Notes: generated from the sequence alone by a model not told the origin. A stretch of 64,000 bases of DNA from Oligoflexia bacterium (GCA_963758495.1 CAVWVI010000005.1:1-64000), one strand, 5' to 3'. Positions 772-54,146 are shown, numbered from the stretch's first letter. Translations and numbers: made by a program.

Positions 772-2370
772 ATGATTCATACAGTGAGTTTTAGTGTAAT
801 GCGCGCTAAGAGAATGATTAAAAATGAGAGCGCAAGAGCGGTTTTGGTGCTTCTCATTTCATTCATGCTTATGTCTCAGGTTTCCTTTGCAGGGACTGAT
901 CTTATTTCAGCCGCGTACGATGGCAATCTGTCTCAAGTCACATCTCTTGTTAAAAAGGGAGCAGACGTAAATTATACAAATAATAATGGATCTACCGCTC
1001 TTTTATTTGCGGCACAAAAAGGCCACATAAAAATAGTAAAGTACTTGATAGAAAAGGGAGCAGACGTAAATCATGTAAATAATGATGGATTTACCGCTCT
1101 TTTATTTGCGGCACAAGATGGCCACTCAGAAGTAGTAAAGTGGTTGATAGAAAAGGGAGCGGAAGTAAATCGTGCAGCTAAAGATGGATCTACTCCTCTT
1201 CTGGTTGCGGTAGAAATGGGCCACCAAGAAATAGTAAAGTGCCTGATAGACAGGGGGGTAGACGTAAATCATGCAACTAAGGGTGGAGCTACCCCTCTTC
1301 TGGTTGCGGCAAGTCATGGTCACATAAAAATAGTAAAGTACTTGATAGAAAAGGGAGCAGACGTAAATCATATAGCTAATGATGGATCTACCGCCCTTTT
1401 ATTTGCGACAAAATATGGTTACCAAGAAATAGTAAAGTACCTGATGGAAAAGATAGCGGAAGTAAATCATGCAAGTAATGATGGAGAGACCTCCTCATCG
1501 CCGATTACATCGCATTTTTTGAGTTCTGCGATTTCAAAAAATACAGATACCATTGATCATAAAATAAATGAAAACATTGGACACATCGTCGCTGCTTTTG
1601 ATCCAGAAGAATTACCAGGATCATTCAATACGGGATACATGGACGTTAATGAATCACTTTTTACCTATTTAGATCTAGTTAAAGAAATTAAGAATAATGT
1701 AGGTTATTTTGACTATCAAGCATTATTAAATATTCCTATAGGTAAGCATTCGGAATATAAATTACAAAATTTAGATACAATTGTAGTGGAAATAGAAAAA
1801 CAATTTCACTTAGGAAAGAAAATTTATTCAACTATTTTAGGAAAAATTGGACATTTTGTAACTCTAGCAATTAATAGCGAAGGAAAGGTTACGATCATCG
1901 ACTCAAACAACAGCACTCAACCACAACTAGGAAAAGATGAAAGAGCAGCATTGCTTCAAGCTCTTAATAGTCAGAAGATAATAATTTCAGATGCCACAAA
2001 ACCTATTGAGTTTCGATTCAATAAAGACATTAGAGCACAACAACAGAAAGCTGATAATGACTGTCTCATATATAGTATGCTCAATGCTTCACAAATTGCC
2101 AAAGAAGGAAATATAAGTGGGTACAAATCCGTAACTTCGTTTTTAAACTCTGGCAAAATTGGAAAATATGAAGATTATAAACAAATTGGGAATCCTGATT
2201 TTTCGGACAATAAAAGTATAAGCAATGGCACAACAAAGCTAGTCGATGATGCAAAAGCTAAGTTTTTAAAATCGTATCGGAACGAAATAAAAAAGAGATT
2301 TTTACAATTATTGCCACCGGACATTCAGGATAAATATGGATACAAACCTGAATTAGATTATCATAAATGA
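772..2370 (+). CDS. Signal-peptide ankyrin-repeat protein with C-terminal CE-clan (Ulp1/C48-like) cysteine protease domain
   Basis: Signal-like VLVLLISFMLMSQVSFA (start may be 814); about six 33-aa ankyrin repeats; C-terminal GHFVTL...IIDSN...QQQKADNDC in His-Asp-Gln-Cys order. Confidence 0.75.
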   Translation: MIHTVSFSVMRAKRMIKNESARAVLVLLISFMLMSQVSFAGTDLISAAYDGNLSQVTSLVKKGADVNYTNNNGSTALLFAAQKGHIKIVKYLIEKGADVNHVNNDGFTALLFAAQDGHSEVVKWLIEKGAEVNRAAKDGSTPLLVAVEMGHQEIVKCLIDRGVDVNHATKGGATPLLVAASHGHIKIVKYLIEKGADVNHIANDGSTALLFATKYGYQEIVKYLMEKIAEVNHASNDGETSSSPITSHFLSSAISKNTDTIDHKINENIGHIVAAFDPEELPGSFNTGYMDVNESLFTYLDLVKEIKNNVGYFDYQALLNIPIGKHSEYKLQNLDTIVVEIEKQFHLGKKIYSTILGKIGHFVTLAINSEGKVTIIDSNNSTQPQLGKDERAALLQALNSQKIIISDATKPIEFRFNKDIRAQQQKADNDCLIYSMLNASQIAKEGNISGYKSVTSFLNSGKIGKYEDYKQIGNPDFSDNKSISNGTTKLVDDAKAKFLKSYRNEIKKRFLQLLPPDIQDKYGYKPELDYHK

Positions 2371-40400: not shown

Positions 40401-41393
40401 ATGCCAAAATTAGAACTGAAAGCAGTCCAACGGGAATTAGAACAAGGTGTCATCTGGCCGGTTTACTGGCTTTACGGTCCTGAAAAGTTAAAATCTCGAG
40501 AACTCTTAAAAAGAATTCGTTTTGCTGTTTTAGGCCAAGAGGGGTCAACTACTGCGGGACAGTGGAATTTTAATGAAGAAGTTTTTGAAGGGAATGAGAT
40601 CGATGCTACTTCGGTTTTAGATTCTGTTCGAAGCCCATCTTTAATAGGAGGAGTTCGTCTCATTTTAGTTCGAGAGGCTCATGCAATGAAGAATCCAGAG
40701 GTCTTGTCTGAACTCTTCGGGGCACCTACAAAGCTTTCAGAACTCATGAGTGTGTGTGTTTGTATTTCAAAGGACTTGGATGGAAGGAAGAAGTTTTCTA
40801 AGGCCCTCGTGGAGGGGGCTGCAGTGGTCTCTTGTGAGGAAGTCATCGAAGTCCAGCGGGAGCCTTGGATTCAGTACTTGGCCCAACGAAGAGGGGTGGA
40901 GCTGAATTCCACTTTAGTGACTCGGCTTTCAGGTCTTGATCCGTGGTCATTAGATATTATTGAGCAAGAACTGGAAAAATTTGTGGTGGCAGGTTCTTCT
41001 CCTGATGTGATTTTGGATAGCCTCGGTCTTTCGGGGGTGACAGAGAGATTTATCGAAGATTTCTTCTCTCGCGATCTAGAAGCAGCCCTTCCTCTCGTCA
41101 GTCGATTTGCAGACTCTCCAGACGAGTCCTTGCCCCTTCTTGGACTGATTGGATGGAATGTCAGACAGCTTGCGATTTGGCTTGCGGACCGTGACAATGG
41201 CACTCGAAATTCAAAACTGAATCCCTATGCAGTGGAGCGATTTCGAAAATGGAGTCCCTTCTGGAAGCAACACGAAGTGATTGAGTTACAAGCTAGGCTT
41301 TCTGAGTTGGATTTTCAGCTTAAGCAAACTCCTCTTTTACCTCTGGGGTTGTGGAGTAGTTTGGTGCTTCGGTTTTGTAGTAAGAGTTCTTGA
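40401..41393 (+). CDS. holA: DNA polymerase III delta subunit
   Basis: PVYWLYGPE, PSLIGGVRLILV, DGRKK, QELEK, D..LK; lptE-holA context. Confidence 0.85.
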   Translation: MPKLELKAVQRELEQGVIWPVYWLYGPEKLKSRELLKRIRFAVLGQEGSTTAGQWNFNEEVFEGNEIDATSVLDSVRSPSLIGGVRLILVREAHAMKNPEVLSELFGAPTKLSELMSVCVCISKDLDGRKKFSKALVEGAAVVSCEEVIEVQREPWIQYLAQRRGVELNSTLVTRLSGLDPWSLDIIEQELEKFVVAGSSPDVILDSLGLSGVTERFIEDFFSRDLEAALPLVSRFADSPDESLPLLGLIGWNVRQLAIWLADRDNGTRNSKLNPYAVERFRKWSPFWKQHEVIELQARLSELDFQLKQTPLLPLGLWSSLVLRFCSKSS

Positions 41394-41445
41394 GAAGATA
41401 TTCTTTAATAAAATCGAATAATTTATTACAAATTGTAATTTGCAA

Positions 41446-44103
41446 TTACTCACGCGAATGGATCGGCAAATAAATACTCAGGTTAGATTCACTCGATGCA
41501 ATCGACTTTCGTTTTGCTTTGGCAATGCTTGACCTAACAGTAGTTTGTAAGATGCGCTGAGCCTCTCTCCCGTTAAGAATTTCACCTTTGGATTGAGCAA
41601 TGAGGTACTTAGAGGTAATGTTGTCCAAGAACTCTTTTTCATTTTCAATCTGGATCGATTTCTTACTTTCTAATTCTTGCTCCTGAATGAGTCTTTTCAG
41701 GCCCAGCTGAATGATGGCTCTAAATTCAGTTTCGCTTGGAGGAAAGATGGGCACTGCTGCTTGAAAACGATCCAATACGGGAGCTGGAATGCCTCCTCGG
41801 ATCAGTTCCTGAGTTAGTTCGTTCTTTGTTACTGGTTTGGTATTCGAATGCAGTAACTGCTGCGCGGCATTGGTGGTTGCAAAAATGTGTGAATTCTTAA
41901 AATTAAGAATGTTACTTGTTTTGCCTCCTGATTGGTTTGAATTGATATTTTCAGAGATGGTCATTTCGCCACTATCTAACAATGCCAATAGAGCCTGTTG
42001 TACAGTGGGAGCTGCTTTTTCTAATTCATCTAAAATAATGACTGAATAAGCATTTTTTCTGATCACTTCAGCCATTTCTCTTCGAAAGCCTTCAACGTTA
42101 CCTTCAGCATATTTATTCATTTCAATTCTGACCGACGGCAAATTCATGCCTTTACCCAGCGTTCGGCCCAGTTCTGTTTTGCCAACTCCTGGAAGGCCAG
42201 CTACTAAGACCCTGAGTGCTGGTTTTGTTTTATCATGTGAATGGGTGAATCGTTGTTCAACTAGTTCAAATAATATGTCTTTGGCGAATGTTTGCCCAAT
42301 GAGTGTTTGATTCAAAAAATCAGGAAAGTTTTGAATTTTCTCTTCTACTTTATGAGTGTCAAAAAAAATGGGATCGATGTTATAGAGTCTACTTGCTGCT
42401 TGATTGATATCTTGAATGGTAATGTCGCTGACGTTGTCATCTTTTAATTGTTTAGTGGCGTATACTTCACTCAGGAGCCCAGTCGCTTTGGAAGGTTGGG
42501 AGCCTGAAGCGCTAAATTCGTTCGATAAATGAATGATGTGCTTCAATACATCTGCCTTAAGGATGGGCTTATTATAGCGCTTCGACCATCCATTTATATA
42601 ATTGGGTAATTCTTCTTCACTGGGTTCCTCTAAATTAATAATCGAGAATCTTCTGAGTAATGCCTGATCACCTCCAAAAGCTTCGTAAAACTCGGAGTGA
42701 GTTGATGTACCAATGAGGGTAACATCTCCCTTGGCTAAATAGGACTTCATGTGTTGGAATAAGTCATTACTATCGCTCTTGGTGGTTCCAGCTCCTCTGA
42801 AGGAGTGAATTTCGTCCATGAAAATAATGGAGTTTTTATGAGAAGACATCATGGATAGGAATTTATTGAGTTTATCTTGAACTTGCCCCACAAATTGAGA
42901 TTTACTATCTAAAAAAGTTCCAATATTAACTGATTTCACTAGAGTATTCTTTGGCAGTTCTGGAAATTTTCCATTTCCAATATCAGCAAGAAATTTCATT
43001 ACTAACTGAGTTTTTCCTACTCCGGGATTTCCAAGAATCACTACATTTTTGCACTCTGGTTTTTGCAGTGATATTCTAATTTTATTTATCAAGTCCTGGT
43101 ATGCTTTGGTAGATTCGAAGTGAAGTGAGTTATCTTTAGATTCTCCTTCATGTTTTTTTAGATCTGCTTCTTCTTTTTTAAGAATAATATCTACAATCTC
43201 ACGTACGTCAAGCCTTTCTGCAGTCATGAGAGGGGTTTCTCCCGAAAATCCATGAGTACTATTTAGGTTAGCTCCATGATTGATCAGAAGTTTTGCAATT
43301 TGAACATGTCCATTTTCGATAGCCAGTTGGAGAGCGGTTTCGTAGTAAGAGTTCTTATGGTTTACGTTAGCTCCTGATGTAAGTAGAAGTTCAACGATTT
43401 CAGTATGCCCCTTTTCGGCTGCCCAGATGAGAGGCGTTGTTCTATATGTACCAAAAGTAGTATTTAAGTCAGCCTGATGATTGATGAGGAGCTTTGCAAT
43501 TTGGGCATGCCCATTATTAATTGCCACGATGAGAGCGGATTCGTCATACTCGTTCCTAAGGTTGACCTTAGCTCCTGATGTAAGTAGAAGTTCAACGATT
43601 TCAGTATGCCCGTTTTCGGCAGCTATGATTAAGGGCGTTTTTTTTCCATAATCTATTTTGTAATTTACATTGGCTCCAGCTTCGAGCAAGAGCTTTACCC
43701 TATTTGTGTCACCCTCTGCGGCAGCATTGTACAGAGATTTATCTTGTTGCTCATTTTGATCCTTGAGTGATTGTACGGCAGTAGTGGCAGTGACACCCAT
43801 AATACCACTCATGAAGGCACGTTTTTTAGTATTTCTCTGGTTTCTATATGAATCATTATTTTGATTGTATTGATTTTGAGAATAAGTTCTTATTTTATTT
43901 ATATGTAATGACTTACCTAAAGTTAGTTGTCGGCTGGGGGTGATGCGATTCAGGGTAGATGGTAATTTAGACATTCTATTACTGATAGGCTTACTAAATA
44001 AGTTTATACCATCCTTGATGATGCCTGCTTTTGCGATATCTGAAAGGAGAAATGCACTTACAAGAGTGGCGGTTATCGTCGACTTAGGTAATAATGCTTT
44101 CAT
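41446..44103 (-). CDS. Signal peptide + ankyrin repeats + two Clp/Hsp100-type AAA+ domains; paralog 1
   Basis: About six ankyrin repeats; GNPGVGKT/IFMDEIH/DQALLRRF; LIGQ, GLPGVGKT/RIEMNKY/ILDELEKA. Confidence 0.88.
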   Translation of the reverse strand: MKALLPKSTITATLVSAFLLSDIAKAGIIKDGINLFSKPISNRMSKLPSTLNRITPSRQLTLGKSLHINKIRTYSQNQYNQNNDSYRNQRNTKKRAFMSGIMGVTATTAVQSLKDQNEQQDKSLYNAAAEGDTNRVKLLLEAGANVNYKIDYGKKTPLIIAAENGHTEIVELLLTSGAKVNLRNEYDESALIVAINNGHAQIAKLLINHQADLNTTFGTYRTTPLIWAAEKGHTEIVELLLTSGANVNHKNSYYETALQLAIENGHVQIAKLLINHGANLNSTHGFSGETPLMTAERLDVREIVDIILKKEEADLKKHEGESKDNSLHFESTKAYQDLINKIRISLQKPECKNVVILGNPGVGKTQLVMKFLADIGNGKFPELPKNTLVKSVNIGTFLDSKSQFVGQVQDKLNKFLSMMSSHKNSIIFMDEIHSFRGAGTTKSDSNDLFQHMKSYLAKGDVTLIGTSTHSEFYEAFGGDQALLRRFSIINLEEPSEEELPNYINGWSKRYNKPILKADVLKHIIHLSNEFSASGSQPSKATGLLSEVYATKQLKDDNVSDITIQDINQAASRLYNIDPIFFDTHKVEEKIQNFPDFLNQTLIGQTFAKDILFELVEQRFTHSHDKTKPALRVLVAGLPGVGKTELGRTLGKGMNLPSVRIEMNKYAEGNVEGFRREMAEVIRKNAYSVIILDELEKAAPTVQQALLALLDSGEMTISENINSNQSGGKTSNILNFKNSHIFATTNAAQQLLHSNTKPVTKNELTQELIRGGIPAPVLDRFQAAVPIFPPSETEFRAIIQLGLKRLIQEQELESKKSIQIENEKEFLDNITSKYLIAQSKGEILNGREAQRILQTTVRSSIAKAKRKSIASSESNLSIYLPIHSRE

Positions 44104-44406
44104 TTTAATGACCTTTTTTTACTTATTAATAATAGTGATGGCATTTATAATCTTTATTTCTTTATTATTCAAGTAAAATATAAGATAATGTGGGTAATAA
44201 GCCAAATGTCCGATTTTAGGACACCCACGAATCCAACTCGAACTAAAATATTGCATATTGAACATCAATAATTAAAATGAAGTGGCTATTTTTATGTGAA
44301 AAATTCATAAATCAAATAAGTTAAAGATATTTAGCTTGATGTAGGAGTGAGTTGAGTAAAATAGGCTAAAAATATACTTATTAAATTTAAGTTATTTTGA
44401 GGACTA

Positions 44407-45180
44407 ATGAGGATTGATATGAAAAAAATGGCAGATAGTTTTAAATCGAATCTTTTATTGGCGTGTGTTTTTTCTTTTGTAGGAGTCACGGTTTTTGCAA
44501 ATCCAAGTGAATCCGTAGTCATTCGTCGGATCAACCAAGTTTTGAGAAACTGTGACGTTTTTACTCCAGTCCGATTAGATCCAAAATGGAAAAATCAGTG
44601 GAATCACGCAAGAAGTCAGCTAGCTTATTCTAGACTTGCTCAGAATATATTAGTGGCTAAGGCGACTTGTGGTGCTTATGCTACACCTACTGCTGCTGAA
44701 CTGACTCAGTACTATAATGAGTTGGAGCCTTTTCGTAGGCTCAGAGAAACTCTCAGAGACAGTGCTGAAATTGCTAAAGAAAGACTGATTCAAGATGCTC
44801 ATTTATCAAAAGAAGAAATTAAGCAACTTGATGATGAGGCCGACATTCAAGAATGTGCGCTGAATGATAGTTTAGGACAGAGGGACGGCAAAGAGGGACT
44901 CTTTGTTGCGCTTGAAACTCAGATCGCAAATGCAAATGATTTTAGTAGTCAATTCGTTTCAGAAGAGGATAAAAGATTGGAAGACACTCGTAGTATTGCA
45001 AGAGAGTCCATTCAAAGTCTTTTACGTACGCCTATTCATGCTTATGAATTAGCCCGAAGTTGCGGCGACCTATTTCTCAATGCTGTTCGAACTCGAGCTA
45101 AAAATAAGGCTAAAGCAGCAAAGAAGGCTAAAGAGTTGGAGATTAGAAGATATCAGCAGATCCTGGACGACGATTGCTGA
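44407..45180 (+). CDS. Hypothetical secreted helical protein
   Basis: Signal-like LLLACVFSFVGVTVFA; 257-aa ORF. Confidence 0.65.
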   Translation: MRIDMKKMADSFKSNLLLACVFSFVGVTVFANPSESVVIRRINQVLRNCDVFTPVRLDPKWKNQWNHARSQLAYSRLAQNILVAKATCGAYATPTAAELTQYYNELEPFRRLRETLRDSAEIAKERLIQDAHLSKEEIKQLDDEADIQECALNDSLGQRDGKEGLFVALETQIANANDFSSQFVSEEDKRLEDTRSIARESIQSLLRTPIHAYELARSCGDLFLNAVRTRAKNKAKAAKKAKELEIRRYQQILDDDC

Positions 45181-45261
45181 TTCTGAAGAAGTATCAGTTC
45201 CAAGAATACAAGGGTTTGAGCAGGAGCGCGTTCGAAAAACTGACAGATAATTAATGATCTA

Positions 45262-45292
45262 TCTGGCGTCGTCCTGTGTGGATGGCGCCAGA
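45262..45292. terminator. GC-rich hairpin resembling the IS right end
   Basis: TCTGGCGTCGTCC-TGTGT-GGATGGCGCCAGA; 18/21 identity to 46700-46720. Confidence 0.5.
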
Positions 45293-45296
45293 AACG

Positions 45297-45360
45297 AACT
45301 CCTCTTGTGCCTCTAGGGTTGTGGAGTAGTTTGGTGCTTGGGTTTTGTAGTAAGAGTTGA
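45297..45360 (+). repeat. Duplicate of the holA 3' end (att-like direct repeat of 41327-41388)
   Basis: 58/62 nt identical; encodes TPLVPLGLWSSLVLGFCSKS* versus holA TPLLPLGLWSSLVLRFCSKSS*. Confidence 0.9.
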
Positions 45361-46724
45361 TTGTGCGCCGGAAAAAAAGGAAAAGGTGGAGCCCTCCTTA
45401 AGGTGGCTGAGTACAGATTTCGATCACTGTGAAAGATATTCGGATCGGTGCTCCTATTGGGGTAAGGTCGAAGACATTGAATTTAAATACGATTTTGTGA
45501 CTGCTTAGGATCGAGCAAAGGCTGAAGACCTGCATTCAGAGTCTTCTATGCAAGAAGATCCTTTTATTCTGAGACAAAAGTGTTTCCACCCACCCTATTG
45601 CCCAAATGAAATGTGCAAGTTTCATCTTCCCTCCAATGAGAAGGATTCCAATTCTTTTTTTTGGTCAAATGGTTGGGCTAAAACTCGATGCTATCCTTAC
45701 CGGGTTCGCCAATTTCGATGTCGTTCCTGCAAGAGAAATTTTCGGTATACTTATTTCAAGCTCGATTTTCGCGAAAAAAAACCTGGCTTAAACTGCAAGA
45801 TTTTCAGTTATATGACGTGTGGAGTGTCCAATCGAGAAATTGCAAGAAGACTGGAGACTTCCGAACATCTCATCCGCCTCAGAGTGAGAAAATTGGTTCA
45901 GTGGGCGCTGATAAAACAAACAGAGCGCACCCAGGCGTTGAAGATCAGCGAGCCCCTCGTTTATGATGGCCTCGAAGCGTTTGCTAAAAGTCAGTATGAT
46001 CCGAATCAAATCCAACAAGCTATCGGCAAGGAGTCTTTGTTTATTTATGACTTTAACTTCGCGCCACTTAATCGAAAAGGAAGGATGTCTCCAAGGCAAA
46101 AGCAAGTCCGACGGTTGACGGAAGAAAAAGAGGGGCGTTACCCGCCAAAAGCCATTCGAATTAGCACGGTGGAGATCTTCTCTCGCCTCTATGAAAGAAG
46201 AGCGGATCTAGCTCAGCCCTTGGTGATTTATTCGGACGAACATTTTCAATATCGTAGAGCTGTTGAACGCGATTTGAAGGATCTTAAAATCCATCAAGTC
46301 ACGGTATCTTCTAAGCAGACGCGGAATTATCAAAACTGTCTATTCAGTGTAAATCACGCGGATCTCTTAATTCGTCAGCATATGGGAGCGTTCAGTCGGG
46401 AAACCATCTGCTTTGCAAAAAACCACGCTCGAATGGTTGGAAAGTACGTCCTCTTCATGGTTTGGAAAAATTTCTTTCGGCCTCAATTTGTAAAGCCTCA
46501 TAAGAAAGATCCAAAGTCTAACCAGAACACTCCAGCTATGAGGCTGGGCTTAACCAAGAGGGCCCTTGAGTTTTATGAATTTTTTGACATCAAAAGGACT
46601 TTAGCACAAATCAACCTGAATCGAGAGTGGACCTTGTTTCATGAAGATCAAGTATTTTACCCCCGGTCCTTAGCTGGAGCATCGGCGTAATAGGGGGACA
46701 TCATCCTGTGTGGACGGCGCACAA
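45361..46724 (+). mobile_element. Putative insertion sequence (~1.36 kb) with TTGTGCGCCG...CGGCGCACAA termini
   Basis: 10-bp perfect TIR enclosing a single transposase-like ORF; right end resembles the MITE TIRs. Confidence 0.7.
45548..46690 (+). CDS. IS1/IS1595-like transposase (Zn ribbon, HTH, RNase-H-like core)
   Basis: CPNEMC...FRCRSCKRNF, VSNREIARRL, YDGLE, YSDEH..Y, NHADLLIR, TPAMRLGL. Confidence 0.75.
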   Translation: MQEDPFILRQKCFHPPYCPNEMCKFHLPSNEKDSNSFFWSNGWAKTRCYPYRVRQFRCRSCKRNFRYTYFKLDFREKKPGLNCKIFSYMTCGVSNREIARRLETSEHLIRLRVRKLVQWALIKQTERTQALKISEPLVYDGLEAFAKSQYDPNQIQQAIGKESLFIYDFNFAPLNRKGRMSPRQKQVRRLTEEKEGRYPPKAIRISTVEIFSRLYERRADLAQPLVIYSDEHFQYRRAVERDLKDLKIHQVTVSSKQTRNYQNCLFSVNHADLLIRQHMGAFSRETICFAKNHARMVGKYVLFMVWKNFFRPQFVKPHKKDPKSNQNTPAMRLGLTKRALEFYEFFDIKRTLAQINLNREWTLFHEDQVFYPRSLAGASA

Positions 46725-46771
46725 ATAAATTGACAACATGCCCATTTTATCTTACTTCCCCTGCTTAAGAA

Positions 46772-47368
46772 ATGGGGTGTGTGATGAAATTCAATAAAAG
46801 TACCTTAAAAGTGGCTCTAGGGTTATCGGTTTTAGCGTCGCAAACAGGGTGTATCTCTGCTCTGGTTTTTCCTCCTCTGATCATTCCAGGAGTGATTTTT
46901 TATGCTCTCGGAGTAGGAGAGCCTTTTGAAAGAGGTGAAGGCCTGAGATTTACAGGGGTCTTATTAGGCTCAAAAGATCCTGGTCATGCTGTGGCTTTAA
47001 ATCAAATTCCTTTGGATGAGAGTATTGCACAAAAAGCTGGGGTGAGTGTTGAGGACATTGAAGATTACAATAATAACCTCAACCAGATTCGAACTGTTGC
47101 GCTCGAGTTGCAACAGGATATTCGTTCGCAACTCGCACGGTCTGAACTCAAGCACTATACAAGAATGGATCAGCTCGCTCAGGATGTTCAGGTGGATTCA
47201 CTTGCAAAGAAATACGGCTTTGGAAGTGGGCAGGAGTTTTTAGAAACGATGACTTCTCAACATCTTTCAAATGAAAAGGTGCAGTCTTTTTCTGAAGCAA
47301 CTCACCTTGAAGCCGCACAGGTCAAAATTCTGCTTCATTACGGATTTGGCGTTAAGATGACTCGTTAG
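46772..47368 (+). CDS. Hypothetical lipoprotein
   Basis: MKFNK...VALGLSVLASQTGC lipobox-like; likely start 46784. Confidence 0.6.
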   Translation: MGCVMKFNKSTLKVALGLSVLASQTGCISALVFPPLIIPGVIFYALGVGEPFERGEGLRFTGVLLGSKDPGHAVALNQIPLDESIAQKAGVSVEDIEDYNNNLNQIRTVALELQQDIRSQLARSELKHYTRMDQLAQDVQVDSLAKKYGFGSGQEFLETMTSQHLSNEKVQSFSEATHLEAAQVKILLHYGFGVKMTR

Positions 47369-47391
47369 TAGTGGTTAATTAGGAAATTGTT

Positions 47392-48597
47392 ATGCAAATA
47401 AAAACACTGGGTTCTTTAAGACGACACTTGGGTGCTGCAAGAAGGACGGTGTTTTTATTTGCATTTCTATTGAGTTCCGTTGCCTTTGGAATGGGCGGAA
47501 AGCTTCAAAAGTATGAATCTCAGCATCACTCTTCTAATTGGCAAGTAAAAACTCCCAAAGTAGTGATTGCCTTTGGAATGTTGGATAGCGGTTTGATCCA
47601 ACGATATAAACGCTTTTCAAAAGATACTCTGGAAAAATATCTCAAAAGAGTCAATCCTCTGCTCCGTCTTGAAGTCATCGAGAAAGCTCAAAGTCAGGAT
47701 GTAGTCCAAGTCTTAGCCGATAAAAGTACGGTGGGGTTCATCTTTATCAGTCATACTTATAAGGCTAAAAACATCGATGCAGCCATCTCTATTGCTGCGG
47801 ATGGACACCCACTTCCTCCAGATATCTTGTCGGCAGCGACTCCGTCTTTAAGATTTAGTAGCTTCTTGGGCTGTCATGGTCCTGAAATCATGAAAGAGTA
47901 CGGTGTTGCTTATGAATATAAGCGTCTTTCTGGGAGTCATATTTTTTATTACAATAGAGATGAGTTGCTTTCCGCTAATTTCATGTTTATTGATAATTTA
48001 AAAAAGTTATTGAAAAAGGAAATAAAAGATTTGGCGAGATTTGATCCTCGTTATTTTATGAGCGGTCAAATACCTCATGAAGATGAGAACGGAAAACTGA
48101 CAATCCGAGTGAAAGATGTTTATCCGGGTATCGAACCTCGATTTGTTTATCTGAATGGCCGAATTGTGGGGATGTTGGGTACAGAAAAAGGAAATTCCAA
48201 TCAAAGCTTAAATTATGAGGAATTTACTTTTGAGGTGCCAGCCTATGCCTTGGAAACAAAGAAGGAGGGTCAACATCATGTTAAAATTCTTTCGAGTGAG
48301 ATTTCTCCCGGTGCTTTAGCTGATAACTATTTGATCGAATCTGTCACTCTTGAAGCTCCCTTTGGAAAGCTAGAAAAGCATTATTCCCCGTCATGGCATA
48401 TTGGAGATGCAGATGCTCCTCCTTCTATTGCTGACTTTAAAGTGGAGCTTCATGGATCAAAAAAGGAGCAAAAAAAACAACTTCTGGATCATATTCGAAA
48501 GTATATGGTCCAGCTTGAGTGGATGGATCGAAACCCCGAAGTCTGGGCAGCTTCACCTCTCAATGGACGTCGTATTTTTTCAGACGTGTTACAATAG
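47392..48597 (+). CDS. Hypothetical secreted protein
   Basis: Signal-like VFLFAFLLSSVAFG; 401-aa ORF. Confidence 0.65.
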   Translation: MQIKTLGSLRRHLGAARRTVFLFAFLLSSVAFGMGGKLQKYESQHHSSNWQVKTPKVVIAFGMLDSGLIQRYKRFSKDTLEKYLKRVNPLLRLEVIEKAQSQDVVQVLADKSTVGFIFISHTYKAKNIDAAISIAADGHPLPPDILSAATPSLRFSSFLGCHGPEIMKEYGVAYEYKRLSGSHIFYYNRDELLSANFMFIDNLKKLLKKEIKDLARFDPRYFMSGQIPHEDENGKLTIRVKDVYPGIEPRFVYLNGRIVGMLGTEKGNSNQSLNYEEFTFEVPAYALETKKEGQHHVKILSSEISPGALADNYLIESVTLEAPFGKLEKHYSPSWHIGDADAPPSIADFKVELHGSKKEQKKQLLDHIRKYMVQLEWMDRNPEVWAASPLNGRRIFSDVLQ

Positions 48598-48601
48598 GCT
48601 G

Positions 48602-51268
48602 TCATTCCCGCGCTTGGATCGGCAAATAAATACTCAGGTTAGACTCCTTCGATGCAATCGCCTTTCGTTTTGCTTTAGCAATGCTTGACCTAACGGTATG
48701 TTGTAAGATTCGCTGAGCTTCTCTCCCGTTAAGGATTTCACCTTTGGATTGAGCAATGAGGTACTCAGAGGTAATATTGTCTAAGAATTCTTTTTCATTT
48801 TCAATCTGGATCGATTTCTTACTTTCTAATTCTTGCTCCTGAATGAGTCTTCTCAGGCCCAGCTGAACGATGTCTCTAAATTCAGTTTCGCTTGGAGGAA
48901 AGATGGGCACTGCTGCTTGAAAACGATCCAATACGGGAGCTGGAATGCCTCCTCGGATCAGTTCCTGAGTCAGTTCGTTCTTTGTTACTGGTTTGGTATT
49001 CGAATGCAGTAACTGCTGTGCGGCATTGGTGGTCGCGAAAATATGTGAATTCTTAAAATTAAGAGTGTTACTGGTTTTTCCGCCTGTTTGGGTTGAGTTG
49101 ATATTTTCGGAGATGGTCATTTCGCCACTATCTAACAACGCCAATAGCGCCTGCTGTACAATAGAATCAGCTTTTTCTAATTCGTCTAAAATAAGGACTG
49201 AATAGGCATTTTTTCTGATAGCTTCAGCCATTTCTCGTCGAAATCCTTCAACGTTACCTTCAGCATATTTATTCATTTCAATTCTGACAAACGGCAAATT
49301 CATGCCTTTCGCCAGCGCTCGACCCAGTTCCGTTTTACCAACTCCTGGAAGGCCAGCCACCAAAATCCTCAGTGCTGGTTTTGTTTTGTCGTGTGATTGT
49401 GTGAAGCGTTGTTCAACGAGTTCAAATAAAGTATCTTGAGCAAGTTTTTGCCCGATGAGAGTTTGATTCAGAAAATCAGGAAATCTCTGGAGTTTTTCTT
49501 CTATTTTATGGGTGTCAAAAAAAGTGGGATCGATGTTGTAGAGTCTGCTTGCTGCTTGATTGATATCTTGAATGGTAATGTCACCGATGGTGTCGCCTTC
49601 TAACTGTTTGGTAGCGTATACTTCACTCAGGAGCCCAGTCGCTTTGGAAGGCTGTGAACCTGAAGCGCTAAATTCGTTCGATAAATGAATGATGTGCTTC
49701 AATACATCTTCCTTAAGGATGGGTTTGTTATAACGCTTCGACCATGCGTTCATATAACTGGGTAATTCTTCTTCATCAGGTTCCTCTAAGTTAATGATCG
49801 AGAATCTTCTGAGTAATGCTTGATCACCTCCAAAAGCTTCGTAAAACTCGGAGTGAGTTGATGTACCAATGAGGGTAACATCTCCCTTGGCTAAATAGGA
49901 CTTCATGTGTTGGAATAAGTCATTACTATCGCTCTTGGTGGTTCCAGCTCCTCTGAAGGAGTGAATTTCATCCATGAAAATAATGGAGTTTTTACGTGAA
50001 GACATCATGGATAGGAATTTATTGAGTTTATCTTGAACTTGCCCCACAAATTGAGATTTACTATCTAAAAAAGTTCCAATATTAACTGATTTTACTAGAG
50101 TATTCTTTGGCAGTTCTGGAAATTTTCCATTTCCAATATCAGCAAGAAATTTCATTACTAACTGAGTTTTTCCTACGCCAGCATTTCCAAGAATAACTAC
50201 ATTTTTGCACTCTGGTTTTTGCAGTGATTTTCTAATTTTATCTACCACTTGCTGGTACGCCTTTGTGGATTCGAATTGATCTGAGTCTTTTTGAAGATTT
50301 TGCTTAGATTCCAAGGATTCAGAGAGTGATTCATCTTGAGCTTCTCTTAGAGATTGATTCGAATCGTCAGCCTCGTCTTCTTCATGGGTGCGTGATGGAG
50401 AGTTTTCAATAGGTGAAAGTTCTTGAGGATCTGCTCCTTTTTCAAGAAGTGCATCTACGATCTCACGTTGGTCATATCTATGTGCGGACAGGAGAGGGGT
50501 CTCTCTAAAGATTCCTCCTTTAAAATTTAAGTCAGCCCCATGATTGATGAGGAGCTTTGCAATTTGAACATGGCCGCGTTCGATTGCTTCTAGGAGAGCG
50601 GTCATTTTGAACATGCCCTGGTGATTTACATGAGCTCCTGCTGCGAGTAGAAGTTTTACGATTTCGATATGACCGTTTTCGGCTGCCCAGATGAGAGGGG
50701 TCATTTTGAGCTTGCCCTGGAGATTTACATGAGCTCCTGCTGCGAGTAGAAGTTTTACGATTTCTGTATGATCGTTTTCGGCTGCCTCCATGAGAGGCGT
50801 GGTATTTGTAATGTCTGACTGACGATTTACGTCGGCTCCCGCTTCGAGCAGGAGTGTTACCTTTTTGGTATCACCCTTTGTGGCTGCCAATCGAAGAGAT
50901 CTATCTTTTTGATCTTGATCAGTGTTTTTAAAAGAGATGTCGTTGCTTGGACTGTTTTTGACTTTTGAGTAGAGAGGTTGAGGTTGAAGATACCCAAATA
51001 AGTTAAATTTATAAGTTGAATTTTCAGGTTTTTCTGAAGTGGGGTGATCGGTAGAGAAATTTCTGAATGAAGGGAAGAAGGGGTGTTGAAACTTATAATT
51101 AAAATGAGGTTTTTTAGATGGGAATTTGAATGTGCTCTTGTTTACTTTGTTTTTAAATAATTTTAAGCCGTTATTAAAGGGATTTGCATTTGCCACGTTC
51201 GATAACAGAAGGGTGCTGACGAGAGTAGTGATTGTTATGGATTTAGACAACGGCTCTTTCATATTCAT
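48602..51268 (-). CDS. Signal peptide + ankyrin repeats + two Clp/Hsp100-type AAA+ domains; paralog 2
   Basis: About five ankyrin repeats, acidic linker, AAA module nearly identical to that of 41446-44103. Confidence 0.88.
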   Translation of the reverse strand: MNMKEPLSKSITITTLVSTLLLSNVANANPFNNGLKLFKNKVNKSTFKFPSKKPHFNYKFQHPFFPSFRNFSTDHPTSEKPENSTYKFNLFGYLQPQPLYSKVKNSPSNDISFKNTDQDQKDRSLRLAATKGDTKKVTLLLEAGADVNRQSDITNTTPLMEAAENDHTEIVKLLLAAGAHVNLQGKLKMTPLIWAAENGHIEIVKLLLAAGAHVNHQGMFKMTALLEAIERGHVQIAKLLINHGADLNFKGGIFRETPLLSAHRYDQREIVDALLEKGADPQELSPIENSPSRTHEEDEADDSNQSLREAQDESLSESLESKQNLQKDSDQFESTKAYQQVVDKIRKSLQKPECKNVVILGNAGVGKTQLVMKFLADIGNGKFPELPKNTLVKSVNIGTFLDSKSQFVGQVQDKLNKFLSMMSSRKNSIIFMDEIHSFRGAGTTKSDSNDLFQHMKSYLAKGDVTLIGTSTHSEFYEAFGGDQALLRRFSIINLEEPDEEELPSYMNAWSKRYNKPILKEDVLKHIIHLSNEFSASGSQPSKATGLLSEVYATKQLEGDTIGDITIQDINQAASRLYNIDPTFFDTHKIEEKLQRFPDFLNQTLIGQKLAQDTLFELVEQRFTQSHDKTKPALRILVAGLPGVGKTELGRALAKGMNLPFVRIEMNKYAEGNVEGFRREMAEAIRKNAYSVLILDELEKADSIVQQALLALLDSGEMTISENINSTQTGGKTSNTLNFKNSHIFATTNAAQQLLHSNTKPVTKNELTQELIRGGIPAPVLDRFQAAVPIFPPSETEFRDIVQLGLRRLIQEQELESKKSIQIENEKEFLDNITSEYLIAQSKGEILNGREAQRILQHTVRSSIAKAKRKAIASKESNLSIYLPIQARE

Positions 51269-51481
51269 TTATCCTCAGCAATTAAAAACATACAGAAACT
51301 ATAAAAATAGATGTCGCATAGTTATCATGTATTAATGTATAAAGTCAAGTAGGTTATTGCTTTAGTCAGGATTTGTTTCTTCGTTCTTCTGAAAGTAGGA
51401 GGGTAAAAAGGCACACAACTGAAATAGTTGTCGAAGAATGGCGCCCTTTGATTGAGAGGGCATTGCAAAATTTTTTGCTAT

Positions 51482-51615
51482 AGACTTCAAGAAAATGTTT
51501 TTGGGCCGGGGAATGCGGAGCAGGAACGGAGCATCCGTCAGCCCAGTGGGCTGTCTCGGCATGGATGCCGAGAAGGCCAATTATAAACGGCCCAAAAGAC
51601 ATTTTCTTGAAGTCT
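51482..51615. mobile_element. 134-bp MITE/REP-like element with 27-bp TIRs and internal hairpins
   Basis: AGACTTCAAGAAAATGTTTTTGGGCCG ... CGGCCCAAAAGACATTTTCTTGAAGTCT; internal CAGCCCAGTGGGCTG and CTCGGCATGGATGCCGAG. Confidence 0.65.
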
Positions 51616-51708
51616 TGTCACGAAATGATTCTCCGAATCTCTATAGAACTTCCGGTTCATGCCCCAGAGTTCGGCAGTCTAAAACAAATTCTGGAGCACA
51701 CGCTATCT

Positions 51709-52125
51709 TTACGGAGAAGTAGGTGGAGTTCTATACCTAAAGGCAACGCGCGCATCAGGTAAACTCAGTGCAAACAGGGGGAAGCTATTTATACAGGAAG
51801 CATCGTGAAACTTCATGAACTCCACTACTATTCCCTCAAAACCTGGAGTCTCCTCGAGTTTATCCCATCTTCTTACATCCCTGTTTTTTTCGTAACTGGC
51901 TATTAATATCTGATAAAGGGCGGTTGGATTGCAATTTGTCTCTACATTAACCTGAGCGGCTATTGCCCCCGTGCATCGCTCGGTTTGAAATGCACTGAAC
52001 GCAGAGGAAAAAATTTCCCGAAAGATTTCTGTTTCCAAGTATTCATCGAATGCAAAACTTGGTACAGAACCGAAAATAATAAAAGCGCATATTGCTAATT
52101 TTTTCAAATAATTTGTAAAAAACAT
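51709..52125 (-). CDS. Hypothetical secreted protein
   Basis: Signal-like KKLAICAFIIFGSVPSFA; GGAG RBS upstream. Confidence 0.6.
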   Translation of the reverse strand: MFFTNYLKKLAICAFIIFGSVPSFAFDEYLETEIFREIFSSAFSAFQTERCTGAIAAQVNVETNCNPTALYQILIASYEKNRDVRRWDKLEETPGFEGIVVEFMKFHDASCINSFPLFALSLPDARVAFRYRTPPTSP

Positions 52126-52420
52126 ATTTCTCCTTGAATAGGCTTGATCTAATAGTACAAGGCCAACTTTTAATATACTCCTATTTTCCGGTCACTTTCC
52201 CGACTTTGACACTCTAAAGTCGAAGGTCCTATGAGCCTCCACGATCGAAGCAAACCCCTTACATTGCACGTGAGAATGCCTAACCTTCCTCTGCCTGGGT
52301 CGTCAGGTCTCCTTAAATTTTATTTACGTTTCAAAAACCAAGGCATCTCAATTTTTGACGAACTATACACTTTAATGAGATCTGCTCCTGTAGCGTCATA
52401 ATCTATTTTCTTGAACGCTA

Positions 52421-52457
52421 TAGTTAAAATCCTGTGGGAATCACAGGATTTTAACTA
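52421..52457. terminator. 16-bp perfect hairpin downstream of the HiPIP gene
   Basis: TAGTTAAAATCCTGTG-GGAAT-CACAGGATTTTAACTA. Confidence 0.65.
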
Positions 52458-52473
52458 GCAATCCAAGCCCAGC

Positions 52474-52848
52474 TTAGGATTTCTTGCTCCAAGAACCACA
52501 CCAGCCTTCGCTGGAAACCAGTCCTGATGTGAGCATCTGGCACTTGCCCCATCCCTCATTGACAGAAGTATAGAGAGCGCAATTTTTACAGTGTTGATTT
52601 TTCGCTTCGGGTTTTTTGCGCTGAGGATACTTTGCATAATCAATGTCTTTAATGTTTTGACGGTAACCAATTGCCGAAGCAACTGGATCTGATTCCAAAA
52701 CGGCTGTTTGTCCAGCCGGAAGTGCTACAAGCTTTTTGTCTTTTGCAAAGGCATCCAGTGAACGGAGTAATAGTCCTGTGCAAGGGATCGCTGCAGCAGC
52801 AAGGGTGAGTTGTTGTAAAAATTCTCGACGAGAGTTGGATTTTTTCAT
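52474..52848 (-). CDS. High-potential iron-sulfur protein (Tat-exported)
   Basis: SRREFL Tat motif; A.AIGY, CKNCALY, WGKC, V...GWC.SW. Confidence 0.9.
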   Translation of the reverse strand: MKKSNSRREFLQQLTLAAAAIPCTGLLLRSLDAFAKDKKLVALPAGQTAVLESDPVASAIGYRQNIKDIDYAKYPQRKKPEAKNQHCKNCALYTSVNEGWGKCQMLTSGLVSSEGWCGSWSKKS

Positions 52849-52906
52849 AAATAAGGCTGCACCGTATCACAGTTGGAGAGCACGTGAAAGGGGCTCCTTG
52901 CAGTGC

Positions 52907-54007
52907 TTACTCTTCAATGCCAATGAGCGAAGCGGCAAAGGTAATCCCAATTTGAGCAATTTTAAAAAAATAATCCTGATGGATCTTGTCGTAAGTATCG
53001 CCGCCGTTTTGATCAAAGTGAGGATTATTGAAAGGGTTGTGCTCAGAGAATACGACCGCAGGAACTCCAATTTCCCACATTGCGTAGTGATCACTGTTTT
53101 CCGCCATGCAGCCTCGTTGTACTTTCATTTGTGAGTACGTGAGTGCGATTTTTTCAAGTGCATCTCCTAAGGGTCGAAAGTCAAAATCTTCATATTCACC
53201 TGCACAGCTGAAAACATCAAAAGTATCGGCTGGCTGGCCTGACTTGCCCTCGCTACATCGATTGTCTGCGGCACAACTCCATCCGCTTTGTTCGTTATCG
53301 ATCGCTGCAATGATTTTAAAATTTTCCTTTTGTGAGATATTTTTAAGATAAGATGCATAACTGCGGGCGCCTTCAAGGCCAGGATTCGCATGTTCTTCGT
53401 AATCTGCAGCGACGAAACGAACCGTTTTTTGCAAATGGCCCTTGTACTGGACTAAGATCTTTGCCGTTTCGAGCATGATTGCCATTCCAGTCATGTCGTC
53501 ATCAACCCCTGGATTTTCTGATTCATGTCCTTCTGGGCCGATACTGTCGTAATGAACAATAATGACAATGGAGTCTTTTGACTGACCCGGAAGTACCGCT
53601 TCAAGGTTATGTCCTTGCGGTTCTCCTATCGAGTGCTGGGTTGGATAGCTGAGTTCTTGAGCTGGAATTCCGAGGGATTCAAAATACTGAAGCCAGTAGG
53701 CGCGAAAGTTTTTCTTAGAAAGGGGAGAGTAACGATCTGTAATCAAATAAGTAGATCCATGGATCGTGACGGGTAGAGTCCCTGTCATCTCTTTGAGTGC
53801 GATCTGAAGTCGAGTTTGATCCACCGTTTGAAAGATCTTTTGATAAAGAGGGCGTGGTGAGTCCGCAGGAGTCATTTTCAACTGTGATCGTGGAAGGTAA
53901 TGAACTTTAGACCAATCTGAAGCGAAAGCAGAGGAATCAGCAGAGAGAGTTTCCAGGATTCCTAGAATCAGTGCTAAAAATATGAAGTTCCAATGAGTTG
54001 TTTTCAT
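52907..54007 (-). CDS. M28-family secreted metallopeptidase
   Basis: NLEA, VHYDS, PGVDDDMTG, EEH, SDHY, H...DT. Confidence 0.88.
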   Translation of the reverse strand: MKTTHWNFIFLALILGILETLSADSSAFASDWSKVHYLPRSQLKMTPADSPRPLYQKIFQTVDQTRLQIALKEMTGTLPVTIHGSTYLITDRYSPLSKKNFRAYWLQYFESLGIPAQELSYPTQHSIGEPQGHNLEAVLPGQSKDSIVIIVHYDSIGPEGHESENPGVDDDMTGMAIMLETAKILVQYKGHLQKTVRFVAADYEEHANPGLEGARSYASYLKNISQKENFKIIAAIDNEQSGWSCAADNRCSEGKSGQPADTFDVFSCAGEYEDFDFRPLGDALEKIALTYSQMKVQRGCMAENSDHYAMWEIGVPAVVFSEHNPFNNPHFDQNGGDTYDKIHQDYFFKIAQIGITFAASLIGIEE

Positions 54008-54146
54008 TTTTTACCCTTCCATAGGTTCCCAAACAGTTTAAGCCGTTTGGTATGAAAATACTAACTCAAATTGTGCTTCGGAGAGCGTCACGTCATTCTT
54101 TTATATGCTTCAATAACGCAACACTCTCCGAGGCAGAGAATGTGAT

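Follow-up and report, generated by a model that had tools for sequence, protein, structure and literature searches.

Two paralogous ankyrin and Clp-type ATPase genes

The stretch of DNA analysed here, 64,000 nt from the genome of an Oligoflexia bacterium (GCA_963758495.1, CAVWVI010000005.1:1-64000; hereafter the window, with positions counted from its first letter), carries on its minus strand two paralogous genes that appear, from their sequences, to belong to a family of Clp-type AAA+ ATPases with N-terminal export signals. Paralog 1 (41446..44103) encodes 885 aa and paralog 2 (48602..51268) 888 aa, or 886 aa when counted from M3. Both share a layout of predicted signal peptide, basic leader, ankyrin repeats and two ClpA-like AAA+ domains (D1 and D2), assigned from open reading frame (ORF), Pfam and NCBIfam evidence for paralog 1 and from ORF, Pfam, BLASTP and AlphaFold2 evidence for paralog 2. 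Both ORFs are intact, and ORF and Pfam analyses agree with the first-pass annotation of this DNA, which had described a pair of ankyrin proteins with Clp-type AAA+ domains at these positions. In each paralog the Pfam ankyrin families (E 1e-33 to 1e-40) are accompanied by PF00004 (AAA, in D1) and PF07724 (AAA_2, in D2). The ankyrin-repeat domain, with four to five repeats per protein, occupies 43204..43767 in paralog 1 (about aa 113-300; PF12796/PF00023) and 50414..50914 in paralog 2 (about aa 119-285; Pfam), and the AAA+ body occupies 41449..43113 (D1, aa 331-590; D2, aa 591-885) and 48605..50269 (D1, aa 334-593; D2, aa 594-888), respectively, all on the minus strand. The bodies were delimited by Pfam together with motif alignment and the ratio of nonsynonymous to synonymous divergence (dN/dS) in paralog 1, and together with a PDB sequence search and alignments in paralog 2.

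Over their full length the two proteins share 67% identity, which rises to 91-92% from about residue 325 onwards. Nucleotide and amino acid identities, respectively, are 62% and 54% in the signal peptide, 41% and 14% in the leader, 69% and 60% in the ankyrin region, 93% and 92% in D1, and 91% and 91% in D2, and the synonymous divergence (dS) between the paralogs rises from 0.22-0.32 in the AAA+ part to 0.73 in the ankyrins and reaches saturation in the leader. The near-identity and low dS of the AAA+ part indicate that the 3' two-thirds of the genes were recently duplicated or homogenised, and the dN/dS values (0.17 for D1 and 0.14 for D2, over 555 codons) that both copies have been kept by purifying selection. 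In the AlphaFold2 model of paralog 2 the AAA+ body has a confidence (pLDDT) of 80-95, and values drop under 50, with no secondary structure, in residues 1-115 and in the linker between ankyrins and D1. This linker contains an extra, strongly acidic Ser/Glu/Asp-rich segment of about 45 residues (50270-50413, aa 286-333) which is not found in paralog 1.

Whole-protein searches were dominated by ankyrin matches, with only two proteins (P0003 and P0236) standing out for the AAA part, and the closest homologs of the pair elsewhere are 41-45% identical. The ankyrins themselves match ankyrin proteins from a wide range of organisms at 41-49% identity and the other ankyrin ORFs of their own genome at up to 45%, and these comparisons point to no particular donor of the domain. 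For the remainder of the protein, the best NCBIfam model is ClpA (TIGR02639), matched colinearly over positions 201-716 of 734 with scores of 209.4 and 212.1 bits, which lie under the cut-off of 993.15; by sequence and layout, the body of the pair is classed as a divergent ClpA.

Predicted signal peptides and basic leaders

Signal peptides were sought with a home-made heuristic combining n-, h- and c-region criteria with a -3/-1 rule (basic n-region, uncharged h-region of 9-15 residues, small-x-small site). The N-termini of both paralogs pass, namely MKALLPKSTITATLVSAFLLSDIAKA followed by G in paralog 1 (44026..44103, minus strand, aa 1-26, proposed cut after AKA) and MNMKEPLSKSITITTLVSTLLLSNVANA followed by N in paralog 2 (51185..51268, minus strand, aa 1-28, proposed cut after ANA), and in each the n-region is basic, 11-12 uncharged residues make up the h-region, and an A-x-A site follows. 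Both start codons are preceded by a Shine-Dalgarno-like motif (AAAGG before the ATG of paralog 1; GAGGA in paralog 2, where it is better placed for the second ATG, M3), and the genes as called in the public record, with 886 and 885 aa, include the hydrophobic N-terminus. Past the h-region, a 15-residue flank is neutral in the pair, and in the relatives described below it is mostly acidic; such a neutral or acidic flank past the proposed cut gives the orientation expected of a translocated, classical signal peptide; the basic run of the pair starts only beyond this neutral flank.

Between signal peptide and ankyrins lies a basic, acid-poor leader of about 85-90 aa in both paralogs (43768..44025, aa 27-112, in paralog 1; 50915..51184, aa 29-118, in paralog 2; both on the minus strand), with a GC content of 32-34%. 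The features that the first-pass annotation had reported for this region were recovered. Mature residues 1-50 contain nine basic residues and one acidic residue in each paralog, and a net charge of +8 or more over the first 50 mature residues is found in only 10 of the 1137 heuristic-positive ORFs of the genome. The motif R-x-[YF]-S is present as RTYS at mature position 46 of paralog 1 (aa 72-75, nt 43879-43890) and as RNFS at mature position 41 of paralog 2 (aa 69-72, nt 51053-51064); it arises in 4.3% and 2.0%, respectively, of shuffles of these leaders, and within residues 27-120 of 85 of 2830 ORFs (3%). As BLASTP aligns RTYS with RNFS, the two motifs represent one inherited occurrence and not two independent ones. 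The leader of paralog 1 has 7 Arg and 8 Lys, and its hydrophobic moment ranks within the highest 5.4% of background values; that of paralog 2 is Lys/Phe/Pro/Asn-rich (14 Lys, 1 Arg, 10 Pro, 13 Phe and 0 Ala), with 15.7% of background moments equal or higher. Most likely, it is the composition of the leader and not its sequence that is under constraint. The basic, weakly hydrophobic stretch noted earlier in paralog 1 is also present (AFMSGIMGVTATTAV, aa 96-110, 15 residues, mean Kyte-Doolittle value 1.41), falls short of a membrane helix in both length and hydrophobicity, and has no counterpart in paralog 2; the highest 19-aa Kyte-Doolittle windows over aa 31-330 (1.16 in paralog 1 and 1.12 in paralog 2) both lie inside the ankyrins.

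A signal-peptide-bearing Clp family in Bdellovibrionota

A search with the AAA part (residues 335-888) returned 11 non-self proteins at 242-442 bits, with canonical ClpA following only after a gap, at 148 bits or below; Pfam finds no Clp_N, ClpB_D2-small or ankyrin domain in these 11 proteins, all of which are unnamed. A profile scan of 301 Bdellovibrionota genomes gave matches above 400 bits at 25 places in 22 genomes, the first match under this line (373.9 bits) being a canonical ClpA; three candidates were scored per genome, so the family copy numbers are lower bounds. Members were found in 6 of 35 genomes from the same taxonomic family as the window; outside that family the order gave 7 of 26, outside the order the class gave none of the 8 scanned, and outside the class the phylum gave 9 of 232. 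The Clp family is also present among metagenome proteins. A third family gene is located in the window's own genome (C3:683521-686283). A contig pattern search keyed on Walker-B placed 79 of its 80 listed loci in the E-value range of ordinary Clp proteins, and one listed locus was a family member identical to that of genome G030.

A signal-like N-terminus is common to the family, with 26 of 30 members passing the strict heuristic and 30 of 30 a relaxed version in which n-region charge is not required, as against 2 of 15 canonical ClpA, ClpB and ClpV proteins; this result backs the Sec-type signal peptides that the first-pass annotation had assigned to both paralogs and which the heuristic finds in them. 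Lys or Arg precedes the h-region in 26 of the 30, and the h-regions comprise about 11-15 uncharged residues. In the AlphaFold2 model of one member (L018), residues 4-22 form an N-terminal helix, with strands after it. Within a few residues past the proposed cleavage site most members carry F-x-F-x-N-G-x-x-L, and [FI]-x-[ND]-G-x-x-L is kept in the window pair as NPFNNGLKLF and GIIKDGINLF (aligned to FEFxNGxxL), with columns A28 and F31 at least 90% conserved.

The AAA+ phylogeny that had been proposed against ClpA, ClpB, ClpV and Skd3 was built with the first three of these and FastTree, and the 30 family rows form a separate clade, split from the 15 ClpA/ClpB/ClpV rows by a branch of length 1.38 with an SH-like support of 100. 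Sister to the pair (support 99) are P0003 and P0236, two proteins with the non-ankyrin N-domain that is usual in the family. This N-domain is beta-rich and about 250-400 aa long; its AlphaFold2 model (16 sequences, 18% mean identity) has a mean pLDDT of 53, and the ESM Atlas gave no usable match for that of P0003. The 28 other family members are without basic leader and without ankyrins, and no ankyrin similarity was found in them by blastp (best E 0.02) or phmmer (no match). Ankyrins and a leader in place of the usual N-domain thus appear, within the clade, only in the window pair, and the nesting of the pair among non-ankyrin members indicates that ankyrins and leader replaced most of the ancestral N-domain in one lineage. 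The swap left the signal peptide and the first conserved motif in place.

These comparisons place the pair as a lineage-specific offshoot of a previously undescribed, ClpA-derived ATPase family of Bdellovibrionota, and the main new point is that the putative export signal is a trait of the whole signal-peptide-bearing Clp family. The earlier view of the two proteins as exported is borne out by relatives with the same N-terminal signal, and we regard it as quite probable, on these sequence data, that the pair is an exported member of the family.

Most family members also possess a single conserved Cys about 4-15 residues from the C-terminus, in the context [ST]-x-C-[EDA]-x-x-L (P0003, P0236, P0267, P0268, P0270, P0271, P0273, L014, L016, L017 and L019), which is not found in the window pair; a subgroup (L003, L015, L117, L120 and L122) has an aromatic C-terminus ending in Y-[NQT] instead. 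The Cys could be a sorting or a disulfide feature.

The AAA+ motor and the ClpP-docking loop

With the genome's own ClpA and ClpB as references, the pair retains Walker A and B motifs in D1 (GNPGVGKT/FMDE) and D2 (GLPGVGKT/LDELEKA), the sensor-1 residues, the R-R and R arginine fingers and the sensor-2 Arg. Across 17 family sequences the D1 residues G364, G366 and K367 (Walker A) and D433/E434 (Walker B) are at least 90% conserved, and G639, K645, E698, K699, A700, N748 and R782 of D2 are invariant. This conservation of Walker, sensor and finger residues in both rings indicates that the proteins work where ATP is available, which is in keeping with the first-pass argument that such an ATPase needs an ATP-containing site.

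The aromatic pore loop of D1 is retained as Q-F-V-G, where ClpA has K-F-R-G. The pore loop of D2 reads GNVEG instead of GYVG, with Asn replacing Tyr (only P0003 has GYVEG), a 12-residue segment upstream of this loop is deleted, and an insertion of about 12 residues relative to ClpA follows Walker B. The ClpB coiled-coil middle domain, an insertion of about 120 residues in the genome's own ClpB, was not found in the pair, and neither paralog has a Clp_N domain (PF02861) by Pfam, ankyrin repeats standing in its place. The ClpP-docking loop ([ILV]-G-[FLM] after the D2 sensor-1), present as LGM in the genome's own ClpA, is deleted in both paralogs. Taken together, these features suggest an ATP-dependent machine driven by D1 and devoid of a ClpP-docking loop, which in function would be close to the Hsp100 proteins that work alone, ClpB and Skd3 among them.

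Five family-bearing genomes checked for ClpP have one full ClpP-length match each, with a second in G035, and the full-length ORFs that were read (G000 and the two in G035, as distinct from those of G030, G025 and G032) are without signal peptide and of cytoplasmic type. Weak SppA-like matches of ClpP fold (341-369 aa) occur in four of the five, with an N-terminal hydrophobic segment in the two that were read (G000 and G032). One entry of the docking-loop comparison, L145, corresponds to G000:C3:568725-571943.

Comparison with known Clp and Hsp100 proteins

In a PDB sequence search, ClpC, ClpA, ClpB and Hsp104 ranked above Skd3, and ClpA, ClpB and ClpC were the best solved matches; the ClpA match is a single 131-bit stretch (query 19-386) reaching only into D2. 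The pair resembles ClpA (1KSF, 6W1Z, 7UIV) in having two colinear AAA+ rings with no ClpB-type middle domain, the latter being also what sets it apart from ClpB and Hsp104. Unlike ClpA, it has a signal peptide, GNVEG in D2 and neither Clp_N nor the ClpP-docking loop, and its family stands on a separate long branch.

The first-pass annotation had likened the two proteins to the animal mitochondrial protein Skd3/CLPB, a disaggregase of the intermembrane space. The Skd3 report (PMC7343390) describes a targeting sequence, a hydrophobic stretch (a conserved segment of about 35 aa), ankyrins and an AAA+ module with a single nucleotide-binding domain, in which the GYVG tyrosine Y430 is essential, and a protein that works stand-alone, with no ClpP partner. 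The pair likewise has an N-terminal targeting-type region, then ankyrins, then Hsp100-type AAA+ domains. However, it has two rings, its D2-type ring is without the pore tyrosine, and the hydrophobic stretch of about 35 aa is missing, paralog 1 having only 15 aa and paralog 2 none; human CLPB/Skd3 was not among the best 60 of 97 PDB matches to the AAA part or the best 60 of 207 to D2 only. Because the union of ankyrins and AAA+ arose in a bacterial family otherwise without ankyrins, the likeness is convergent, and the Skd3 and mitochondrial reading of the pair is a surface resemblance.

Plasmodium HSP101, part of the PTEX translocon, is a class-1 Clp/Hsp100 ATPase that is exported and works in a host-derived compartment, and we know of no other established parallel for an exported Clp ATPase. 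It is found among the PDB matches (6E10, 6E11) at 96 bits, weaker than ClpA, ClpB and ClpC. If the proposed export holds, the family would likewise consist of Clp ATPases sent outside the producing cell. HSP101 differs in being eukaryotic and ClpB-like, in possessing both a middle domain and an N-domain of Clp_N type, and in working within a defined membrane translocon; the family loci compared showed neither a partner of this kind nor a shared neighbour gene. Within the same phylum, the periplasmic Bd3460-type immunity protein of Bdellovibrio bacteriovorus is also a Sec-exported ankyrin protein, and differs in being small and ankyrin-only, without an AAA+ body, and in blocking the predator's own peptidoglycan endopeptidases (PMC8289219). 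Exported ankyrins, on this example, need not target eukaryotes.

Genome context and the island between holA and rpsT

The window's genome has 79 Ank_2 matches, compared with 0-13 in 40 relatives. The signal-peptide heuristic is passed by 23 of its 24 ankyrin ORFs, as against 1244 of 3147 ORFs overall, and in most of the ankyrin ORFs the repeats follow directly after the signal, with no basic leader. At least five exported-type ankyrin proteins form a paralogous group with a long, near-identical N-terminus (MIH..V(K/M)RAKR.IKNE.ARAVL...SQVSFA), one of them encoded in the window at 772-2370 (plus strand), with a tandem cluster at C4:926033-935211 and a further locus at C4:1004576-1006489.

Both Clp paralogs lie inside a strain-specific island of 12.75 kb (41394..54146), delimited by tblastn synteny. 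In 14 of 24 loci of relatives rpsT directly follows holA, and the island is found only in the window's genome, where it has a lower GC content (0.38-0.42). The 3' end of holA provides the reference copy of a 67-nt direct repeat (41322..41388, plus strand), a second copy of which (45292..45358, plus strand, 91% identity) was found by repeat search; the two copies flank a 3.97-kb segment containing paralog 1 and a gene for a 257-aa protein (44407..45180, plus strand) with a signal-like N-terminus by the heuristic and no Pfam or NCBIfam match. Downstream of the second copy is an insertion sequence (IS)-type transposase-like gene of 380 aa (45548..46690, plus strand), which matches NCBIfam NF033558 (weak IS1) at E 9.8e-5, below cut-off, and has no Pfam match. 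Five further genome copies are 82-98% identical to it (G000 C3:350220-351371, C3:114255-115406, C1:176338-177477, C1:541204-542343 and C1:418218-419357), giving six copies in two classes (98% and 82%), and the element looks like an active, poorly classified IS. Two genes at 46772..48597 (plus strand), of 198 and 401 aa, have hydrophobic, signal-like N-termini and no family match; the small putative exported proteins without family match in the island are those at 44407-45180, 46772-47368, 47392-48597 and 51709-52125. The island also contains genes for a HiPIP (52474-52848) and an M28 peptidase (52907-54007); among the family loci compared, a HiPIP gene is near the family gene only in the window and in genome G008.

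Site of action

The reading that we cautiously favour is that the two proteins are Sec-exported, double-ring Hsp100-type unfoldases or remodellers, without a ClpP-docking loop, which act in an ATP-containing space of another cell, the cell interior being the simplest candidate for a place with ATP outside the producer's cytoplasm. After Sec export and cleavage of the signal peptide, the proteins would leave the periplasm, possibly by a secretin-type channel (the genome has four secretin genes), hexamerise, and consume ATP in a compartment of the recipient cell. The recipient would be bacterial prey, as expected for the phylum, or a eukaryotic host, which is hinted at by the strain's expanded set of exported ankyrin proteins. 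Bdellovibrio is reported to deploy much of its proteome, as a large secreted set, into prey, and to have a periplasmic ankyrin protein that serves in immunity (PMC8289219). The ankyrin head may pick the target protein and D1 may thread or remodel it, with the cationic leader most likely serving as a flexible tether to anionic surfaces or as a regulatory or targeting tail. The history of the lineage would have involved replacement of the N-domain by a disordered basic leader and ankyrins, followed by duplication inside the strain-specific island.

Several observations weigh against this proposal. The signal-peptide heuristic is permissive, being passed by 36-40% of all ORFs and also by 2 of the 15 canonical Clp proteins, and the tree was built with FastTree only, with local SH-like supports and several long branches. 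The seven distinct family loci compared (L024 and L106 being one and the same place) have no gene neighbour in common. A supply of ATP outside the producer cell has to be assumed, and no route from the periplasm to another cell was identified, VirB4 (type IV secretion) and TssC (type VI secretion) not having been found in the 92%-complete genome and type III secretion not having been searched; a search for the T2SSK family matched 10 of 14 control genomes and, being non-specific, is uninformative. The deletion of 12 residues in D2 and its pore loop without an aromatic residue make full threading uncertain. Finally, most other family members have [IMVLF]-G-[FY] at the position of the ClpP-docking loop (alignment columns ~1277-1300), and this docking-like loop, together with the cytoplasmic-type ClpP of the genomes checked, could point to a cytoplasmic site of action.

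A cytoplasmic site is what follows if the N-terminus is not cleaved and instead anchors the proteins N-out in the inner membrane, leaving the AAA+ body in the cytoplasm as a tethered unfoldase of the FtsH/Msp1 kind, with relatives that could pair with ClpP. Such an arrangement would solve the ATP problem and accommodate the docking-like loop of most members in genomes where ClpP was found only as a cytoplasmic type; basic flanks favour the cytoplasmic side under the positive-inside rule, and the leader past the h-region is strongly basic. We nevertheless consider it improbable, as the h-regions are short (about 11-15 uncharged residues), small-x-small sites follow them and Lys or Arg precedes them in 26 of 30 members, and the flanks immediately past them are neutral in the pair or mostly acidic in the relatives, the basic run beginning only further on. 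It is also unlikely, though less so, that the proteins stay in the producer's periplasm or envelope as ankyrin-guided chaperones, scaffolds or immunity factors with little ATP turnover or some other source of ATP. A signal peptide with no identified signal for a second step of secretion, the signal-like N-termini of nearly all ankyrin ORFs of the genome and the degenerate D2 pore loop would all suit a periplasmic residence, as would the precedent of the Bdellovibrio periplasmic ankyrin immunity protein (PMC8289219). However, the catalytic motifs of both rings are conserved and dN/dS is 0.14-0.17, which argues that ATP hydrolysis matters to these proteins. The periplasm is generally held to be free of ATP, which counts further against a periplasmic residence. 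The low dN/dS, over 555 codons at a dS of 0.22-0.32, together with the intact ORFs and intact catalytic motifs, likewise leaves it extremely unlikely that the pair is mobile-island cargo in decay, without current function, notwithstanding its place in a strain-specific island of low GC content next to a six-copy IS element and the 41-45% identity of its nearest homologs elsewhere.

The first-pass annotation had favoured effectors delivered into a eukaryotic host or prey and imported into its mitochondria, the leader being a presequence cut at R-x-[YF]-S and the proteins a counterpart of Skd3/CLPB at work there. The net charge of +8 with one acidic residue, which puts both paralogs in the top 10 of 1137 heuristic-positive ORFs, the R-3-type motif in both leaders (chance rate 2-4%), the hydrophobic moment of paralog 1 (top 5.4% of the background) and the retention of composition and length at 14% identity, as in targeting peptides, are all consistent with it. 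So are the ankyrin expansion (79 matches against at most 13 in relatives) and the order of targeting sequence, hydrophobic stretch, ankyrins and AAA+ given for Skd3 (PMC7343390). Even so, this account is very unlikely to be correct. Mitochondrial presequences form an Arg/Ala/Leu/Ser-rich amphipathic helix; the leader of paralog 2 is Lys-, Pro- and Phe-rich with a single Arg, no Ala and an unremarkable moment, and no helix is modelled in residues 1-115 of this paralog, where confidence is low. The two motifs count as one, the hydrophobic stretch is weak and confined to paralog 1, and the proteins have two rings, no D2 pore tyrosine and, by the PDB matches, no specific kinship with Skd3 (ClpA, ClpB and ClpC are nearer). 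For the first-pass annotation, homologs that are without the leader and occur only in bacteria with no eukaryote contact would tell against import; the first of these two points holds, the 28 other family members being leaderless. Besides giving no VirB4 or TssC match, the genome yielded one F-box-like match, below cut-off, and no U-box match, the U-box control also having matched nothing; and a folded ATPase of about 95 kDa that forms hexamers would be a poor substrate for import. A combined version, in which the family comprises extracellular unfoldases acting in other cells and the ankyrin pair of this ankyrin-rich strain in particular reaches a eukaryote, with the basic leader, laid bare once the signal peptide is removed, as mitochondrial import signal and the pair as a convergent counterpart of Skd3 that arrives from outside, is likewise very unlikely.

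Implications

AAA+ unfoldases are taken as cytoplasmic machines because they depend on ATP. If the Sec signal that is always present in this family and the selection on both ATP sites are read together, as in the reading of the pair as unfoldases acting in another cell, these bacteria would export an ATP-driven unfoldase to a foreign ATP-containing compartment; no account of a bacterial AAA+ unfoldase that is exported turned up in phrase searches of the open-access literature. The window pair is compact, at about 95 kDa and apparently requiring no partner, and it suggests that the target-recognition head of such a machine may be swapped, and duplicated on a mobile island. For the predatory Bdellovibrionota, the family would point to a new class of tools for dismantling the proteins of prey or host.

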